Shown piece by piece: positions 166-6,232 of a stretch of DNA of 7,257 nt. The stretch is taken from IMG/VR virus record IMGVR_UViG_2609459831_000014; one strand, given 5' to 3'. Each line of letters begins with the position of its first letter. Position 1 is the stretch's first letter. A program made the translations under genes and the position numbers. This DNA comes from a virus. Lineage: Duplodnaviria; Heunggongvirae; Uroviricota; Caudoviricetes. The notes below the pieces were generated by a model that saw only the letters and a program-made list of their open reading frames with translations, did no database searches and was not told where the DNA came from.

Positions 166-408
166 TTAGTAACGCCAGCGGTCATAACGCTGATATTTCG
201 GCACTTTTGGTGCTTTAATCGCCTTAATAACCCACACCACCGCAATCGCCAGTAGTAACCACGGCAGCAACTTAATCATCAATGCCAGCATACCGCCGAG
301 GAACATAATGGCCGTCGCCACAACCAGCGCGGCGATAATGCCCAGCAACGAAACGCCGGTGACCATCAGCATGACAAAAAAGCCAATCACAAAAAGTAGT
401 TCCAGCAT
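166..408 (-). CDS. pspG: Phage shock protein G (80 aa small inner-membrane protein)
   Basis: Product MLELLFVIGFFVMLMVTGVSLLGIIAALVVATAIMFLGGMLALMIKLLPWLLLAIAVVWVIKAIKAPKVPKYQRYDRWRY is strongly hydrophobic and matches PspG as I recall it. ATG at 406-408 is preceded by GGGAG at Shine-Dalgarno distance. It lies immediately downstream of dusA, the conserved E. coli arrangement. The 150-aa track ORF 166..618 is an over-extension running through the promoter into dusA. Confidence 0.85.
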   Translation of the reverse strand: MLELLFVIGFFVMLMVTGVSLLGIIAALVVATAIMFLGGMLALMIKLLPWLLLAIAVVWVIKAIKAPKVPKYQRYDRWRY

Positions 409-443
409 GATGCACTCCCAAATATGAAATCTCTTGCTGGCAT

Positions 444-459
444 TACAAGAATCATGCCA
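444..459 (-). promoter_or_regulatory. Candidate sigma54 (-24/-12) promoter for pspG
   Basis: Minus strand reads TGGCAT-GATTC-TTGTA, against the sigma54 consensus TGGCAC-N5-TTGCA (GG at -24, GT in place of GC at -12). It sits ~35-50 nt upstream of the pspG ATG. pspG is a known sigma54/PspF-dependent gene (established knowledge). Confidence 0.5.
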
Positions 460-463
460 AAAA

Positions 464-476
464 TAATCTATTGATT
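464..476 (-). promoter_or_regulatory. IHF-consensus-like site upstream of the candidate sigma54 promoter
   Basis: Minus strand AATCAATAGATTA fits WATCAANNNNTTR. IHF-assisted looping is typical of sigma54 promoters. Sequence match only. Confidence 0.35.
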
Positions 477-488
477 TAACAGCAAAAC

Positions 489-510
489 GCCCCGCGACGG
501 TGCGCAGGGC
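489..510 (-). terminator. Possible intrinsic terminator after dusA
   Basis: On the minus strand GCCCTGCG / CGCGGGGC form an imperfect 8-bp stem (one mismatch) with a 6-nt loop, followed by GTTTTGCT. It lies 30-50 nt past the dusA stop, before the pspG promoter. Confidence 0.35.
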
Positions 511-541
511 GTGGTGAATTTGACTATTTTTTGGTGAAAAG

Positions 542-1579
542 TTAACGCTTATCCGCCACCAGTTTGAGCGCGTGTTCCAGCACATTAATGTCTGCACCCG
601 CTTTATGGGCATTTTCACTTAAATAACGCCGCCACTGCCGCGCGCCAGGAATACCCTGGAACAAGCCCAACATATGCCGGGTAATATGACCGAGATACGT
701 CCCCTGGCTGAGTTCACGCTCAATGTACGGATACATGGCGCGCACTACCGCCACCGGATCGGCATCGATATCCGAGGAACCAAAGATCTCCCGGTCTACC
801 GCCGCCAGAATACCCGGATTCTGATACGCCTCGCGCCCGACCATCACGCCATCCATATGTTGCAGGTGTGCTTTGGCCTCTTCCAGCGACTTGATACCAC
901 CGTTAATCGACATTGTCAGATGCGGAAAGTCACGCTTCAGTTGATACACACGCGGATAATCGAGCGGCGGGATCTCACGGTTTTCTTTCGGACTTAACCC
1001 CGAAAGCCAGGCTTTACGTGCATGGATGATGAACATCTCACACTCGCCTTTGCCGGAAACGGTGTTGATGAAATCGCAGAGAAATTCATAGCTGTCCTGG
1101 TCGTCGATGCCAATACGCGTTTTCACCGTCACCGGAATCGACACCACATCGCGCATCGCTTTCACGCAGTCGGCAACCAGCTGCGCATTACCCATCAGAC
1201 ACGCACCAAACATGCCGTTCTGCACCCGGTCAGACGGGCAGCCGACATTCAGGTTGATCTCATCATATCCACGCGCTTCTGCCAGCTTCGCACACTGCGC
1301 CAGCGCCGCCGGATCGCTACCGCCGAGTTGCAACGCTACCGGATGTTCTTCTTCACTATACGCCAGGTAATCACCTTTACCGTGAATAATCGCCCCTGTA
1401 GTTACCATTTCAGTATACAGCAACGTATTGCGGGAAAGCAGACGCAAGAAATAGCGGCAATGTCTGTCCGTCCAGTCGAGCATAGGAGCAATGCTAAACC
1501 GAGAATTCCAGTAAACACCAGTTTTTTCAGGCATCACGCTGGTTTGATTAATTTTTTGTGTTTCATGATTATCGTGCAT
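542..1579 (-). CDS. dusA: tRNA-dihydrouridine synthase A (Dus family flavin oxidoreductase), 345 aa
   Basis: Full-length ORF with Dus-family hallmarks ([32 protein letters not shown]). ATG at 1577-1579, stop TAA 542-544. Alternative internal start at 1532-1534 (MPEKTG...) would give 330 aa. No clear SD before either start. pspG synteny supports the call. Confidence 0.9.
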
Positions 1580-1667: not shown

Positions 1668-2765
1668 ATGGCGTACTATAACATAGAGAAACGACTAAAA
1701 TCCGATGGCACACCACGCTATCGCTGTAATGTGATTATCAAAGAAAAAGGTGTTATCACTTACAGGGAAAGCAAAACATTCCCTAAACATGCTCATGCCA
1801 AAACATGGGGCACACAGAAAGTGATGGAATTAGATCTATATGGCATTCCATCATCAAATGCAGTTGACGGACTTACAGTCCGTGACTTACTACACAAATA
1901 TTTAAATGACCCAAATGCCGGAGGTAAAGCAGGCCGTACTAAAAGATATGTGCTGGAACTGCTTATGGATAGTGACATCTCCGCGATCAAACTATCTGAA
2001 CTGACAGAAAATGACGTAATTGAACATTGCAGGCTAAGAAACAACGCTGGTGCAGGTCCAGCTACAGTTAGCCACGATGTTAGTTATCTTGGCAGTGTTC
2101 TGGATGCTGCCAAACCTGTATATGGAATTAATTACACATCAAACCCAGCAAAAGCCGCTCGTCCATATCTACTTAAACTTGGTTTAATTGGTAAATCAAA
2201 TCGTCGTAATCGTAGACCGGCATCTGATGAACTGGACATGCTCATTGAAGGTCTTCAACAACGATCTACACATAAATGCTCAAAAATTCCGTTCGTTGAT
2301 ATCCTCAAATTTTCTGTGTGGTCATGTATGCGAATCGGTGAAGTATGCCGATTACGATGGGAGGATCTCGATCAGGAACAAAAATCCATACTCGTAAGAG
2401 ACAGGAAAGATCCACGTAAAAAGGAAGGCAACCATATGAAAGTAGCCTTGCTTGGGGAAGCCTGGGATATCGTCCAACGACAACCCAAAAAATCAGAATT
2501 CATTTTTCCATATAACAGCACTTCTGTTACTGCGGGATTCCAGAGGGTAAGAAGCAAATTAGGTATTAAAGATCTGCGATACCATGATTTGCGTAGAGAA
2601 GGGGCAAGTCGCTTATTTGAGGCTGGTTTTAGTATTGAGGAAGTCGCCCAGGTTACAGGGCATCGTTCATTAAACGTGCTATGGCAGGTATATACCGAAC
2701 TGTATCCGAAATCTTTACATAATCGTTTTGAAGAGCTCCAAAGGAGCAGAAATAAGACCTCTTGA
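1668..2765 (+). CDS. int: Tyrosine site-specific integrase, 365 aa, candidate dusA-targeting family
   Basis: ATG 1668 preceded by GAGG (1657-1660). C-terminal catalytic region has the tyrosine-recombinase signature (RYHDLRREGASR with H-x-x-R, then GHRSLNVLWQVYTELY with candidate catalytic Tyr). Divergent from and adjacent to the dusA 5' end. By eye more AT-rich than the dusA/pspG flank. Confidence 0.9.
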   Translation: MAYYNIEKRLKSDGTPRYRCNVIIKEKGVITYRESKTFPKHAHAKTWGTQKVMELDLYGIPSSNAVDGLTVRDLLHKYLNDPNAGGKAGRTKRYVLELLMDSDISAIKLSELTENDVIEHCRLRNNAGAGPATVSHDVSYLGSVLDAAKPVYGINYTSNPAKAARPYLLKLGLIGKSNRRNRRPASDELDMLIEGLQQRSTHKCSKIPFVDILKFSVWSCMRIGEVCRLRWEDLDQEQKSILVRDRKDPRKKEGNHMKVALLGEAWDIVQRQPKKSEFIFPYNSTSVTAGFQRVRSKLGIKDLRYHDLRREGASRLFEAGFSIEEVAQVTGHRSLNVLWQVYTELYPKSLHNRFEELQRSRNKTS

Positions 2766-2826: not shown

Positions 2827-3075
2827 ATGCGTATTGAAATCTGCATAGCCAAAGAAAAAATGACTAAAATGCCAACCGGTGCTGTGGATGCGTTAAAGGA
2901 AGAATTAACCCGACGCATCAGTAAACGTTATGACGATGTAGAGGTGATCGTAAAAGCCACCAGCAACGATGGCCTTTCTGTTACACGCACCGCAGATAAG
3001 GATTCTGCAAAAACTTTTGTTCAGGAGACTCTGAAAGATACCTGGGAATCTGCTGACGAGTGGTTTGTTCACTAA
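2827..3075 (+). CDS. dinI: DinI-family damage-inducible protein (RecA modulator), 82 aa
   Basis: MRIE..IAK...P.GA.DAL..EL.RRI...LSV.....[16 protein letters not shown] follows the DinI pattern including the C-terminal TWESAD-WFV motif. SD AGAGGG 2815-2820. Two LexA boxes immediately upstream. Confidence 0.85.
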
Positions 3076-3141
3076 TTAACACGTAAAATCGGTAACGGCT
3101 GGAAATCATTCAATACTCGCACTATCGAAAGTTCGCCAGCC

Positions 3142-3179
3142 AGCCGCAGCACGTTCTTGCATACGACGTGGCTGCGGCT
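3142..3179. terminator. Interrupted 12-bp hairpin between convergent dinI-like and invertase genes; possible bidirectional terminator
   Basis: AGCCGCAGC(3142-3150)/GCTGCGGCT(3171-3179) plus ACG/CGT with a one-base bulge and 13-nt loop. No convincing U-tract on either strand, hence low confidence. Confidence 0.3.
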
Positions 3180-3218
3180 TCCAACATTAGACAAATAACT
3201 CTTTAAATTGCTTTTAAA

Positions 3219-3782
3219 TTATTTCGTTTGAATGCCAGTAACAGGAAATCGTTTATATAGGGTTGATAGCCCAACGTTATAGATACGTGCAACATAACGC
3301 CGTGATTTCCCTGCCGCTATGAGCGCTCCCATCTGTTGCCACTGCTCGTCGCTAAACTTCGGTCTACGCCCACCAATCCGGCCTTTGGATCTGGCAATAG
3401 CCAAACCAGCTAAAGTTCGCTCGCTATTCAAATCAGATTCATACTGCGCAGCAGAAAGAATATTACGGAAATTATAGCGACCACTTGCTGTTTTCAGGTC
3501 TACGCCATCTGTAATACTCCGAAAATTAACACCTTTTTCGTGCAGATTTTGAAACATCAATAGCGCATGCAGCACATTTCTCCCTATCCGATCTAACTTC
3601 CAGACAATCAACTCATCTCCACTTTTCATCACCGTAATTAATTCCTTTAACACAGGGCGATTAGCTGTTCTGCCACTGGCATATTCTTCATAAATTCGCT
3701 CACAGCCAGCTGACTCAAGTGCAAGACGTTGCAACTCTGTATCCTGATGATTTGTTGATACACGAACATACCCGTAAATCAT
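3219..3782 (-). CDS. pin: Serine recombinase / DNA invertase of the Pin-Gin-Hin-Cin family, 187 aa
   Basis: N-terminus MIYGYVRVSTNHQ carries the catalytic Ser in the YVRVST motif; VWKLDRIGR and a C-terminal helix-turn-helix region (GRIGGRRPK ... STLYKR) are present. Length is typical for this family. Adjacent to an invertible tail-fibre segment. Confidence 0.9.
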   Translation of the reverse strand: MIYGYVRVSTNHQDTELQRLALESAGCERIYEEYASGRTANRPVLKELITVMKSGDELIVWKLDRIGRNVLHALLMFQNLHEKGVNFRSITDGVDLKTASGRYNFRNILSAAQYESDLNSERTLAGLAIARSKGRIGGRRPKFSDEQWQQMGALIAAGKSRRYVARIYNVGLSTLYKRFPVTGIQTK

Positions 3783-3787
3783 GAGTG

Positions 3788-3814
3788 CTTCTCCTGTTGT
3801 AAAAACAGGAGAAG
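3788..3814 (-). promoter_or_regulatory. Perfect 11-bp stem-loop sequestering the invertase Shine-Dalgarno
   Basis: CTTCTCCTGTT(3788-3798) and AACAGGAGAAG(3804-3814) with a 5-nt loop. On the minus-strand mRNA the 3' arm AACAGGAGAAG holds the SD AGGAG, 8 nt before the pin AUG. No U-tract follows, so it is not a terminator. Confidence 0.5.
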
Positions 3815-3850
3815 AGGCGAAATATCACCTGATTCAGAAAAATATTTGAA
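3815..3850 (-). promoter_or_regulatory. Candidate sigma70 promoter for pin
   Basis: Minus strand TTCAAA (fwd 3845-3850) - 17 nt - GATATT (fwd 3821-3826). The -35 overlaps the outer half of the left crossover site. Weak match. Confidence 0.25.
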
Positions 3851-3867
3851 AGGTTGGTTTGGGAGAA
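3842..3867. other. Invertase crossover site, left (gix/hix-like 12+2+12)
   Basis: ATATTTGAAAGG-TT-GGTTTGGGAGAA. The inner half GGTTTGGGAGA is identical, in inverted orientation, to the inner half of the site at 5930-5955. AAACC/GGTTT arms flanking a central dinucleotide resemble Gin/Hin-type sites. Confidence 0.5.
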
Positions 3868-4356
3868 GACTCTGCATTACCTGTTGGGGTGCCTGTTCCG
3901 TGGCCTTCAGCCACTCCGCCTACAGGCTGGCTGAAATGCAATGGTGCAGCTTTTTCTGCTGAAGAATACCCGGAACTGGTAAAGGCTTATCCGACAAATA
4001 AATTGCCTGATTTACGTGGTGAGTTTATTCGTGGCTGGGATGATGGGCGTGGTATTGATGCTGGACGTGCCTTGCTAAGTCTTCAGAATGGAGGAGTGGA
4101 ATCACACACCCACCAGGGACAGCTCTTCAGAGTCAGTGATTATCGTACAAAAGAAATACCAGCATCAGAAGTTATGGGAAGAGGATATATTGCAAGCCTG
4201 ACGCCGGGTGCTGATAGCCCACTTGATTTTGATGATTATTCTGTATCCTCTAATCCAAATGGATATTTTGTCGGGAATCAGAGAACAACAGCATATGGGG
4301 TAAATGAAACCCGCCCACGGAATATTGCATTTAACTATATCGTGAGGGCTGCATAA
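3850..4356 (+). CDS. Silent alternative tail-fibre C-terminal cassette (Sv'-like), promoterless with no own start codon; ~168 codons
   Basis: Frame opens right after TGA at 3847-3849. The track start at 3859 is TTG, an in-frame Leu within K-V-G-L-G-E-D. Product (PVGVPVPWPSATPPTGWLKCNGAAFSAEEYPEL...GEFIRGWDDGRG) is a typical variable tail-fibre C-terminal domain. Stop TAA 4354-4356 overlaps the next ATG (TAATG). Confidence 0.75.
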   Translation, partial: KVGLGEDSALPVGVPVPWPSATPPTGWLKCNGAAFSAEEYPELVKAYPTNKLPDLRGEFIRGWDDGRGIDAGRALLSLQNGGVESHTHQGQLFRVSDYRTKEIPASEVMGRGYIASLTPGADSPLDFDDYSVSSNPNGYFVGNQRTTAYGVNETRPRNIAFNYIVRAA

Positions 4357-4958
4357 TGGATAACGCTGTATTAAATAGCGAGCTTATTGCCACGAAGGCG
4401 GGAAATATTCCTGTCTATAACTATGATGGTGAAACACGGGAATATATTTCCACTTCAAATGAATATCTTTCCGTTGGTGTCGGCATTCCGGCATGTTCCT
4501 GTTTAGATGCCCCTGGCACACATAAGGCTGGTTATGCAATCTGCCGTTCTACAGATTTTAACTCATGGGAATATGTGCCAGATCATCGCGGTGAAATCGT
4601 CTATAACACCGAAACGGGAGATGCCAAAGAAATCACAGCTCCGGGTGATTACCCTGAAAATACAACCACTATCGCACCGTTAACGCCATACGATAAATGG
4701 GATGGTGAGAAATGGGTGACAGATACTGAGGCACAACACGGTGCCGCAGTAGAAGTGGCAGAAGCACAACGCCAGTCACTGATTGATGCAGCAATGGCTT
4801 CCATTAGTCTGATTCAGCTGAAATTGCAGGCCGGGCGGAAGCTGATGCAGGCAGAAACCACCCGACTTAACATTGTGCTGGATTACATTGACGCGGTGAC
4901 GGCAACAGATACCAGCACCGCGCCGGATGTCATCTGGCCTGAACTGCCGGAGGCGTAG
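4356..4958 (+). CDS. Tail fibre assembly protein (Tfa/U'-like chaperone), 200 aa, silent orientation
   Basis: ATG 4356 with SD GAGGG (4344-4348), translationally coupled to the upstream cassette. C-terminus ...DTSTAPDVIWPELPEA carries the conserved Tfa terminal motif. Confidence 0.8.
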   Translation: MDNAVLNSELIATKAGNIPVYNYDGETREYISTSNEYLSVGVGIPACSCLDAPGTHKAGYAICRSTDFNSWEYVPDHRGEIVYNTETGDAKEITAPGDYPENTTTIAPLTPYDKWDGEKWVTDTEAQHGAAVEVAEAQRQSLIDAAMASISLIQLKLQAGRKLMQAETTRLNIVLDYIDAVTATDTSTAPDVIWPELPEA

Positions 4959-5367
4959 GCCATTCAATATCTGGCACACTGGAGGTATCAACCAGCTCCA
5001 GTGCGTCCAGATAATCCAGCCACGAATTATATTGCGCCAGTTCCTCGCCTTTCAGACGACCAATAGCGGCTTTACCGGGCCATTGTTTACTGTTCATGTA
5101 TTCGTTGGCCTGATTAATTAATAGCTGTCTTTTTGACTCAGAAATTTCAATAAGTTCTTCATGCGTGGGTGAAGGAATATCTGCCCACGCAGGCATTCCG
5201 TCTGCACCTGCAATACGTCGCTTACCCTGCGGAGGTGTCGCCATAAACGACTCGGCACGTCGGGTTTCAATATCTTTTGCATCATCAGGCCATGTGCCGG
5301 AATCGCGGTATACGGCCTCATTACCAGCCAGATAAAACGCATTTTTTTTAGCACTGTATTTGTACAT
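4930..5367 (-). CDS. Tail fibre assembly protein (Tfa/U-like chaperone), 145 aa, expressed orientation
   Basis: ATG 5365-5367 lies 1 nt after the tail-fibre stop, with a GGGA-type SD inside the fibre 3' end. C-terminus ...DTSSVPDIEWPTPPAVQAR carries the Tfa motif. Its 3' end overlaps the convergent tfa' by 29 nt. Confidence 0.8.
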   Translation of the reverse strand: MYKYSAKKNAFYLAGNEAVYRDSGTWPDDAKDIETRRAESFMATPPQGKRRIAGADGMPAWADIPSPTHEELIEISESKRQLLINQANEYMNSKQWPGKAAIGRLKGEELAQYNSWLDYLDALELVDTSSVPDIEWPTPPAVQAR

Positions 5368-5368
5368 A

Positions 5369-6232
5369 TTATTTCCCTACCGCAATCCAGAAAAATGAAC
5401 TCATGCTGGCTACTGGTGCTCCGCCCGCTGTTGGAATCATCAGATTTCGGACGCCGCATCCTAAATTAGTTATCGTTGGCGCTGAAATTACTGGCGACTG
5501 AACTACGTTAGGAAGCGATACCTGCTGAGGACCAAATCCCACATACATCGGGTATGCAGAGAACGCGACAGGAAACGTAATAAAGATCTCTCCAGTTGAT
5601 GATGGATTGGCTGTCCCCCACTGAATAATCAGACCTGACGGTAATTTTTGCCAGCCAGGGCTGGTCAGGCTGGATGTGAAGTCATTCATATCCGGAATCT
5701 GATTTGCCCCTGAGCCAACATCCCTTTGAGCCGCACTTTTCAGATCAAGATAAGTTCTTAGTTCAGCCTTATCCTTACCGCTTAAATCTGTCAGTGTCTG
5801 GTCTTTTGGTTGCGCATAGTCTTTTGTTGCCAGACGAACTACTGTATTTGTTCTGGCGAATCGCATATACGGGGCATTGACGTTACTACTGTCAAACCCT
5901 GCAATTTTACATTCATCACCAATTAATGCATCTCCCAAACCAAGGTTTTCGAGAGCCGTTTTCACCGTGCCATCCGATTTGATATCGCCAAACGGATTCT
6001 TGCGGCTTAACAGCAGCGCACGAAGCGCGGTAAGCAACTGGTCGTGCCGCGCCTTCTCCAGGCTGGCACCGGATGCCTCCACCACGCTGCAGAGTTCTTC
6101 CTGCAACATATCAAAGTAGTCATCATCCAGATCGGTGGCAGGTGTGCCGGTCTGGGGGTTACCACGGGTAAAACCGTTCTTCCCCGCGCCGAACTTATCC
6201 TTCTGCGCGGTTTTCGTGTCTATACGATGCAT
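5369..6232 (-). CDS. Phage tail fibre protein, 287 aa: constant N-terminal part (6232 to ~5944) plus variable C-terminal part (5943 to 5369)
   Basis: ATG 6230-6232 with SD GGAG 7 nt upstream, starting 3 nt after the stop of the upstream tail gene. The crossover site lies inside the gene at codons ...ENLGLGD.... Size and position match an e14 StfP / Mu S-like fibre (from memory). Confidence 0.85.
5930..5955. other. Invertase crossover site, right (inside the tail fibre gene)
   Basis: ATCTCCCAAACC-AA-GGTTTTCGAGAG, an imperfect dyad. Its inner half is the reverse complement of GGTTTGGGAGA at 3856-3866. Confidence 0.5.

Follow-up and report, generated by a model that had tools for sequence, protein, structure and literature searches.

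A serine DNA invertase of a distinct lineage at an e14/SKA5-like tail-fibre switch, with altered Fis-related elements

The invertase and its locus

The window analysed here is a 7,257-nucleotide stretch of Caudoviricetes DNA (IMG/VR record IMGVR_UViG_2609459831_000014), which represents a piece of the Escherichia coli chromosome comprising pspG and dusA (542–1579, reverse strand), followed by a dusA-integrated prophage resembling e14 and SKA5. It carries a gene for a serine DNA invertase (hereafter the window invertase) beside an invertible tail-fibre segment, an enzyme that is ordinary in its action and probably unusual in its control. The prophage part also contains YmfQ/Mu-gp48-like and baseplate-J genes alongside the invertible region, and the same gene arrangement is found at dusA in complete E. 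coli genomes. The features discussed below are collected in Table 1.

The translated open reading frame (ORF) starts with MIYGYVRVSTNHQ and contains SGRYNFRNILSAAQYESDLN, and the peptides quoted for it in the initial annotation are present. Pfam assigns residues 2–135 to Resolvase (PF00239; E-value, 3.3e-36) and residues 138–179 to HTH_7 (PF02796; E-value, 7.3e-12). The best solved-structure relative is Gin (E-value, 1e-56, over residues 1–181), the DNA-binding domain matches that of Hin (PDB entry ID, 1HCR; E-value, 2e-4), and the protein is assigned to PHROG 125, 'DNA invertase', with 245 bits. Tyr5, Arg7, Ser9, Arg42, Asp64, Arg65, and Arg68 align with the corresponding residues of Hin and Gin and, together with the minor-groove arm Gly138–Arg139 preceding the helix-turn-helix, are invariant in 25 non-redundant genes of the same lineage (clade genes, described below). 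Judged from its sequence, the protein has both hallmarks of a small serine recombinase, namely, a resolvase domain with a predicted Ser nucleophile and a GR arm with a C-terminal helix-turn-helix. The complete genome deposited for Escherichia phage SKA5 encodes an identical protein (100%), annotated as 'DNA invertase'. At least 1000 contigs contain exactly this protein, under no other names than 'recombinase family protein' or 'DNA invertase Pin-like'; NCBIfam contains no model for Pin or for the window invertase.

Table 1. Features of the window (positions are those of the whole stretch; CDS, coding sequence; nt, nucleotides)
Feature	Position	Strand	Remarks
Tyrosine integrase	1668–2765	+	Prophage part
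DinI-like gene	2827–3075	+	Prophage part
Serine DNA invertase, 187 aa, WIN-type lineage, helix E GRYNFRNILSAAQYESDLN	3219–3782	−	Intact ORF; Pfam, Gin PDB match, PHROG 125
Position equivalent to Fis site II, CAGCTGGCTGTGAGC, CDS nt 71–85, degraded	3698–3712	−	G at −7 lost; no synonymous constraint
Equivalent of Fis site I, TATCAACAAATCATC, CDS nt 23–37	3746–3760	−	12–13/15 bases as in cin/pin/gin
Hairpin, perfect 11-bp, CTTCTCCTGTT / TTTAC / AACAGGAGAAG	3788–3814	−	RNA fold −25.6 kcal/mol, z −4.15
Second small stem, 5-bp GGTGA/TCGCC	3816–3829	−	Precedes the hairpin
Left (invertase-proximal) 26-bp site, TTCTCCCAAACC AA CCTTTCAAATAT	3842–3867	Written on reverse strand	Core 3854–3855; outer half CCTTTCAAATAT
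Invertible segment, ~2.1 kb, two alternative tail-fibre C-termini and chaperones	3855–5942		Both orientations in nature; inversion keeps frame
Sv', silent alternative tail-fibre C-terminus	3859–4356	+	Pfam Collar (tail collar domain), E 1.5e-15
U', tail-fibre assembly protein for Sv'	4356–4958	+	Pfam Caudo_TAP, E 3.7e-30
U, tail-fibre assembly protein for currently expressed Sv	4930–5367	−	Pfam Caudo_TAP, E 2.2e-29
Tail-fibre gene, present configuration	5369–6232	−	Pfam Gp53-like_C
Right 26-bp site, ATCTCCCAAACC AA GGTTTTCGAGAG, within tail-fibre gene	5930–5955		Core 5942–5943

Inversion of the tail-fibre segment

The tail-fibre gene consists of a constant N-terminal part of 100 residues, located outside the segment and common to both configurations, and a variable gp53-like C-terminus located inside. 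When the segment was inverted in silico, Sv' was joined in frame to the constant part, giving an intact alternative tail fibre of 263 residues. Among loci whose invertase is at least 99% identical to the window invertase, the segment occurs in both orientations, flipped in L028, L033, L040, and L041 and unflipped in L001, L025, L034, and L039, with the outside flank unchanged, as is also seen in the annotation of L003. This population-level evidence indicates that the segment inverts in nature.

Crossover sites

The inverted repeat formed by 3849–3866 and 5931–5948 is real and lies within two inverted 26-bp sites of the hix/gix/cix/pix type that flank the segment, with the invertase gene beside one of them, as in the Gin/Hin/Cin/Pin group. 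The right site agrees at 25/26 positions with the reverse complement of the e14 Sc-side pix site (CTCTCGAAAACC TT GGTTTGGGAGAA), a single inner-half base being different, and in most sister loci it is identical to the e14 site. Its outer half is standard, and the inner halves are those of e14 and pro483. The outer half of the left site, on the other hand, is non-standard, with CC instead of GG beside the core and a match of 15/24 to the hix consensus. The CC is retained in nearly all clade loci, though non-coding, and e14, pro483, and 500465-1 deviate likewise at the proximal outer half, where they have CG. The view of the initial annotation that the sites have diverged, with non-standard outer halves, thus holds for the proximal outer half only; the right site is standard, and overall the sites are of the e14/Pin type, consistent with the recognition region GLSTLYKRFP and the 70% identity of the DNA-binding domain to that of Pin. 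The proximal CC may mean weaker binding, autoregulation of an overlapping promoter, or a directional bias.

Among related loci, 77 distinct upstream sequences were compared; the invertase-side DNA is constant outward from the central AA, and at least 10 different cassettes abut its inner side. Because homology breaks exactly at this position, the core dinucleotide is taken to be the point of exchange. No other strong hix-like sites were found in the window; a multi-inversion shufflon was considered and rejected, since only these two sites stand out and the remaining matches are at the chance level (4.75 expected). A three-subsite array of the res type was not found.

As a separate observation, at a point ~115 nt upstream of the invertase start in the related loci L024–L103, one and the same invertase with its outer half-site is combined with more than 10 different inner half-sites and tail-fibre cassettes, the inner half-site variants ahead of the AA core including AAACC, AAACG, AATTG, ATAGG, AAAGC, AAATG, and others. 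The association of one invertase and outer half with so many cassettes points to extensive cassette exchange between prophages at the crossover site.

A lineage outside the Gin/Hin/Cin/Pin clade

For comparison, the sequences of Gin, Cin, and Pin were taken from the Mu, P1, and K-12 records, and that of Hin was confirmed by its exact match to HIN_SALTY. In pairwise alignments these four proteins are 65–82% identical to one another, whereas the window invertase is 49.7% identical to Gin, 52.7% to Cin, 54.3% to Pin, and 44.4% to Hin (and 33% to γδ resolvase), clearly under the usual range of the group. The invertases of E. coli phages pro483, P88, and 500465-1 show 72–85% identity to Gin, Cin, and Pin and 63–69% to Hin, and just 47–55% to the window invertase. 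In a neighbour-joining tree with 200 bootstraps, the canonical clade of Gin, Cin, Pin, Hin, and the proteins of pro483, P88, and 500465-1 was supported at 98.5% with the window invertase outside it; the latter fell in a clade of its own (84–99.5% support), the joining of both clades being poorly resolved. By these measures the window invertase lies outside the Gin/Hin/Cin/Pin (Din) group understood as one clade with 60–80% mutual identity. Likewise, in a library of representatives at 50% identity, its own cluster scored 406 bits, and the next full-length protein 159 bits with 47% identity. The initial annotation had proposed that the protein is diverged from Gin, Hin, Cin, and Pin with its catalytic and DNA-binding elements kept, and that it may form a distinct sublineage; both proposals are borne out, and the pairwise identities and phylogeny it called for did not place the protein within the usual range of the group.

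The lineage is widespread. A search of 5.8 billion proteins gave ~120 cluster representatives that are 76–99% identical to the window invertase, from Escherichia, Salmonella, Citrobacter, Klebsiella, Enterobacter, Serratia, Kluyvera, Yokenella, Trabulsiella, and Atlantibacter. Genome scans added members from Shimwellia, Pseudocitrobacter, and Apirhabdus (80–82% identity), as well as a remoter subclade (65–72% identity) from Morganella, Erwinia tracheiphila, Citrobacter murliniae, and Kluyvera. The lineage is present in 214 of 5426 complete E. coli genomes (~4%) and, over the databases searched, in at least 15 genera. The 25 clade genes are 58–72% identical to the window gene at the nucleotide level, with a single exception at 86%; residues 100–125 of their products are nevertheless invariant, despite a synonymous divergence of 0.5–0.7 in this part, which argues for strong purifying selection and not for the recent spread of one allele. 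Gene conversion from a resolvase was also considered and rejected: among 150 representatives no closer relative of the core (residues 59–136) was detected, the best matches outside the clade being 47–54% identical. Literature searches on SKA5, on invertases of dusA prophages, and on the lineage of the window invertase yielded nothing specific. Taken together, we hold with high confidence that the gene encodes an active invertase of a distinct lineage.

Fis-related and lock residues of the protein

In Hin, the helix-B residues Lys47, Arg48, and Lys51 touch the enhancer DNA, and Gln151, Arg154, and Leu155 in helix 1 of the DNA-binding domain form the Fis-contact patch; both sets are required for activation by Fis and the enhancer, and have been called uniquely conserved among DNA invertases (PMC3798978). 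The helix-B triad reads K-E-T in the window invertase versus K-[KR]-[KR] in 7/7 canonical proteins, and position 51 (Hin numbering) is basic in 1/25 clade genes. The Fis patch reads Q-A-L versus the invariant Q-R-L of the canonical proteins, and its three positions vary freely in the clade, with 8, 8, and 6 different residues, respectively. Thus aligned, the window invertase has neither the basic helix B nor the Fis-contact patch typical of the Din group. A basic triad paired with Q-R-L was found in none of the 120 cluster representatives of the clade, and all seven canonical proteins have both.

Further differences are located in helix E, which together with the Phe88 pocket forms the lock that holds dimers of Hin and Gin inactive pending the action of Fis. 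In Hin, the substitution F105N allows cleavage and inversion independently of Fis and induces the SOS response, no change hyperactivates more strongly than H107Y, and Phe106 is essential for the active tetramer (PMC4513852). The substitution M114V allows Gin to dispense with Fis (PMC3575834); the crystallised Gin (PDB entry ID, 3UJ3) carries this Val, and the wild-type Mu protein has Met. The canonical helix-E motif GRFFFHVM..ALAEMEREL, which includes the Phe105 lock, His107, Met109, and Met115, is replaced in the window invertase by GRYNFRNILSAAQYESDLN. In Hin numbering, the clade-invariant changes are F104Y, F105N, H107R, M109I, L112A, and M115Y, and the neighbours of the Phe88 pocket are also changed (L67I, L77M, and I/V78F); in the numbering of the window invertase, the residues concerned are Tyr103, Asn104, Phe105, Arg106, Ile108, Ala111, and Tyr114, and Ile66, Met76, and Phe77 of the pocket. 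Phe105, the equivalent of Phe106 in Hin, is kept and invariant. The motif GRYNFRNI…AAQYESD was found in 0/40 other representative small serine recombinases examined.

The enhancer region at the DNA level

The two Fis sites of the enhancer are spaced by 48 bp. In the P1 record the cin enhancer is annotated at nt 19–90 of the gene, corresponding to codons ~7–30, instead of codons ~30–60, to which the initial annotation had directed the search for Fis sites. The two sites of the Hin enhancer have a spacer of the type ATTTA/TAATG between them (PMC3798978). The 15-bp cores of the Fis sites used here were inferred from this spacer together with the P1 annotation and the 48-bp spacing, both the assignment and the scoring being home-made. 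On this basis, aligned canonical-type genes share a conserved 15-mer T[AG]TCAACAAATGA[AC]C centred at nt 30 (site I) and a second 15-mer G[CT]GC[AG]GGATG[TC]GA[AG]C centred at nt 78, 48 bp from the first (site II).

The window gene retains a close equivalent of site I, which is overlapped by a G..C 15-mer at 3749–3763. At the position of site II, three bases are lost, namely, G at −7, A at −3, and the A in the centre; the peptide encoded there is SAGCE in both Cin and the window invertase, so that codon choice alone differs. The G at −7 is found in 0/25 clade genes versus 7/7 canonical-type genes, and the C at +7 in 16/25 versus 7/7. The third codon positions at nt 75 and 78 are free in the clade, whereas the canonical-type genes have A at nt 75 in six and at nt 78 in all seven cases. 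Synonymous divergence in the canonical genes and the clade, respectively, is 0.21 and 0.25 over site I, 0.39 and 0.52 over site II, and 0.55 and 0.55 over the rest of the gene. By this measure, a constraint of the site-I type survives in the clade and that on site II does not, and the window gene does not appear to contain an enhancer with two Fis sites.

A relocated enhancer was sought as a new dip in synonymous divergence, and the sole clear dip covers nt 1–48; milder dips at nt 145–192 and 229–276 are without a conserved nucleotide pattern. In a home-made scan for Fis motifs from −100 to +250 of the window gene, no 15-mer scored at least 5.5 besides that at nt 23/27. A scan of the clade detected no conserved second site, and the weak recurrent matches at nt 132, 173, and 185 are absent from the window gene. 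These generic scans, by home-made score or simple pattern, failed to give the canonical site I as a strong match and therefore lend weak support only.

Natural chimeras

Three relatives combine parts of both lineages. P0017, found at dusA in L104 (3001–3564) and at another locus in L105 (3001–3564), has a canonical-type 5' third with Fis sites I and II intact and helix-B KKR; the fusion point lies between codons ~60 and 90, and the remainder matches the window gene at 100% identity. P0103 and P0114 consist of a clade core and a Pin/Cin-like DNA-binding domain including Q-R-L. In the canonical clade all Fis-related modules are always carried together, and the occurrence of the clade core with or without each of them is as expected if the core does not depend on such modules. 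The chimeras suggest that the clade core works whichever Fis-related module is joined to it.

A hairpin ahead of the invertase start

The 3' arm of the hairpin preceding the gene contains the Shine-Dalgarno sequence of the invertase, 5 nt ahead of the ATG. Both the hairpin and the small stem are kept in all loci of subclade A, with 99% of cells paired and variation that tolerates G–U pairs; covariation support for the hairpin is minimal, with one compensatory pair and the rest invariant. Neither element occurs upstream of gin or in the Morganella/Erwinia subclade. The two probably serve in translational damping of the invertase, or as an operator. Scanning for the sigma-70 consensus revealed no convincing invertase promoter.

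Proposed action and control

In the proposed mechanism, a dimer of the invertase would bind each of the two e14/Pin-type sites in inverted orientation, and Ser9 would cut at the central AA/TT dinucleotide, whereupon the 2.1-kb segment would flip. In this way, the constant N-terminal part of the tail fibre (100 residues) would be fitted with the collar-type Sv' and U' in place of the gp53-like Sv and U, or the reverse. The chemistry, the type of site, the geometry of gene and site, and the purpose are those of Gin, Cin, and Pin; it is the control layer that differs. The loss of site II, the changes in helix B and the Fis patch, and the replaced helix-E lock together suggest that activation does not proceed via the canonical invertasome. 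Given that the invertase is active, it is fairly probable that the canonical invertasome with its two-Fis enhancer is not used for activation, and as the best explanation of the whole we favour, with moderate confidence, an active invertase of a distinct lineage that is activated outside the canonical Fis invertasome.

Two forms of this explanation are conceivable. Activation may be truly independent of Fis, which is possible but somewhat doubtful, and activity would then be held down otherwise, for example, by the hairpin sequestering the ribosome-binding site. Alternatively, Fis may be used in a non-canonical arrangement around the retained site-I-like sequence. We put forward only tentatively the fuller picture of a widespread lineage without the Fis/enhancer checkpoint, which would have a rebuilt lock in helix E and its pocket and would be restrained by translational occlusion of its ribosome-binding site, with autoregulation at the proximal site as a possible further restraint.

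Several observations weigh against activation outside the canonical invertasome and would fit, instead, an ordinary Fis/enhancer-dependent Din invertase that has merely drifted, in which two Fis dimers, at site I and at a degenerate or shifted second site, activate the enzyme as for Gin and Pin. The site type is the same, the DNA-binding domain is Pin-like, and the site-I equivalent is kept at its canonical position with nucleotide-level constraint (12–13/15 identical bases, low synonymous divergence), ~100 bp from the crossover centre as usual. Lys46 is invariant in the clade, and the next helix-B position (48 in Hin) is Arg or Lys in 19/25 clade genes, though not in the window invertase. Fis is present in all hosts found, which belong to the Enterobacterales. 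Sites for Fis are known for their degeneracy (PMC4784862), and the canonical site I itself scores only 4.6 in the home-made scan, so that a cryptic second site is possible. Moreover, the canonical control set for synonymous constraint comprises only 6–7 related genes, and a pocket that has evolved along with them (L67I, L77M, and V78F) may render neutral the substitutions that hyperactivate Hin. We still consider mere drift unlikely. The lock in helix E, the target of Fis action, has been replaced, and one of the new residues is an Asn at the position of Hin Phe105, as in a partly Fis-independent Hin (PMC4513852). In addition, site II of the clade has neither the conserved G/C ends nor the synonymous constraint that canonical genes show, the positions of Arg154/Leu155 in the Fis patch and of Lys51 are unconstrained in the clade, and the window gene and its flanks offer no Fis-like 15-mer reaching the threshold except that at nt 23/27.

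E. coli strains often contain several Pin-type invertases, and cross-complementation is established for Gin, Cin, Pin, and Hin. The e14-type sites, such a supply of cross-complementing invertases, and the ILSA..AQ..E pattern that helix E has in common with γδ resolvase would accord with a resolvase-type or decaying recombinase whose segment is turned by homologous recombination or by trans-acting Pin-type invertases, but this is very improbable, in view of the intact ORF with all catalytic residues and its exact sequence on at least 1000 contigs, the strong purifying selection across genera, the constant position of the gene beside a co-varying outer half-site with inner cassettes changing exactly at the core dinucleotide, the lack of a res-like three-subsite array, the 33% identity to γδ resolvase, and the presence of the gene in the complete genome of SKA5.

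Comparison with known systems

Gin, Hin, Cin, and Pin are textbook recombinases gated by a host protein on an enhancer. To our knowledge, control by Fis is common to every enteric tail-fibre or flagellar invertase characterised so far, and these enzymes are interchangeable. The closest parallel to the window is Pin (PinE) with the P-segment of e14, which has the same prophage module of YmfQ, tail fibre, two Tfa chaperones, and invertase. The two systems share 25/26 bases of the Sc-side site and the inner half-site TTCTCCCAAACC with the AA core, the invertase gene begins ~70–75 bp from the proximal site in both, and the DNA-binding domains are 70% identical. In contrast, overall identity is 54%; the two canonical Fis sites, helix-B KKR, Q-R-L, and GRFFFHVM..AEMERE are all found in Pin and none of them in the window invertase. 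The proximal outer half-site is CCTTTCAAATAT in the window and CGTTTATGAAAA in e14, and the strong hairpin sequestering the ribosome-binding site belongs to the window invertase and not to Pin of e14.

Gin of Mu and Cin of P1 belong, like the window invertase, to the serine invertases and exchange tail-fibre C-termini with their chaperones by inverting a segment between 26-bp sites; their catalytic residues and minor-groove arm GGRRPK are identical to those of the window invertase. The window invertase differs from them in its 50–53% identity and its place outside their clade, in an enhancer of the cin type (nt 19–90) that is only half recognisable, and in having Tyr at the position of Gin Met114, where a change to Val removes the dependence on Fis (PMC3575834). 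Hin, whose mapped regulatory residues serve as the reference (PMC3798978, PMC4513852), shares the fold, the chemistry, and Phe106. At 44% identity, the window invertase has Asn at position 105, a non-His residue at 107, and non-Met residues at 109 and 115; it thus differs at positions where mutations of Hin relax the control by Fis, and the Fis-contacting Arg154 is replaced by Ala. Furthermore, Hin controls a promoter and its gene lies within the segment, whereas the window invertase serves a tail fibre.

Beside sites of the e14 type, this lineage has replaced precisely the mutationally mapped Fis/enhancer interface and the dimer lock, and it therefore constitutes a natural experiment on the rebuilding or loss of a checkpoint. 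If the lineage is indeed Fis-independent, it would be the wild-type counterpart of the laboratory Fis-independent mutants of Gin, Hin, and Cin. The window invertase could also serve as a compact enzyme for switches in synthetic biology, possibly functioning without Fis. Databases name the lineage only 'recombinase family protein', and the breadth of its spread also bears on the annotation of host-range switching in prophages.

Other features of the window

The integrase gene begins 88 bp from the dusA start, and the prophage sits at the 5' end of dusA (542–1667). Replacement of the dusA 5' end by a phage-borne sequence is typical for dusA-specific integrases, and the SKA5 record contains such a replacement in the form of a 123-nt 'tRNA-dihydrouridine' CDS adjoining the integrase (L001, 8204–8326). 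The DinI-like and invertase genes converge, and the stretch that separates them holds a GC-rich, imperfect inverted repeat at 3137–3185 (AGCCGCAGCACGT ... ACGTGGCTGCGGCT), which may act as a bidirectional terminator; it has no T-run, and a terminator scan made no call there. Finally, a mechanically called ORF of 150 residues (166–618, reverse strand) runs across the 3' end of dusA; the pspG annotated in related genomes accounts for no more than its C-terminal ~80 residues (166–408), and the additional length is therefore an artefact of the calling procedure.

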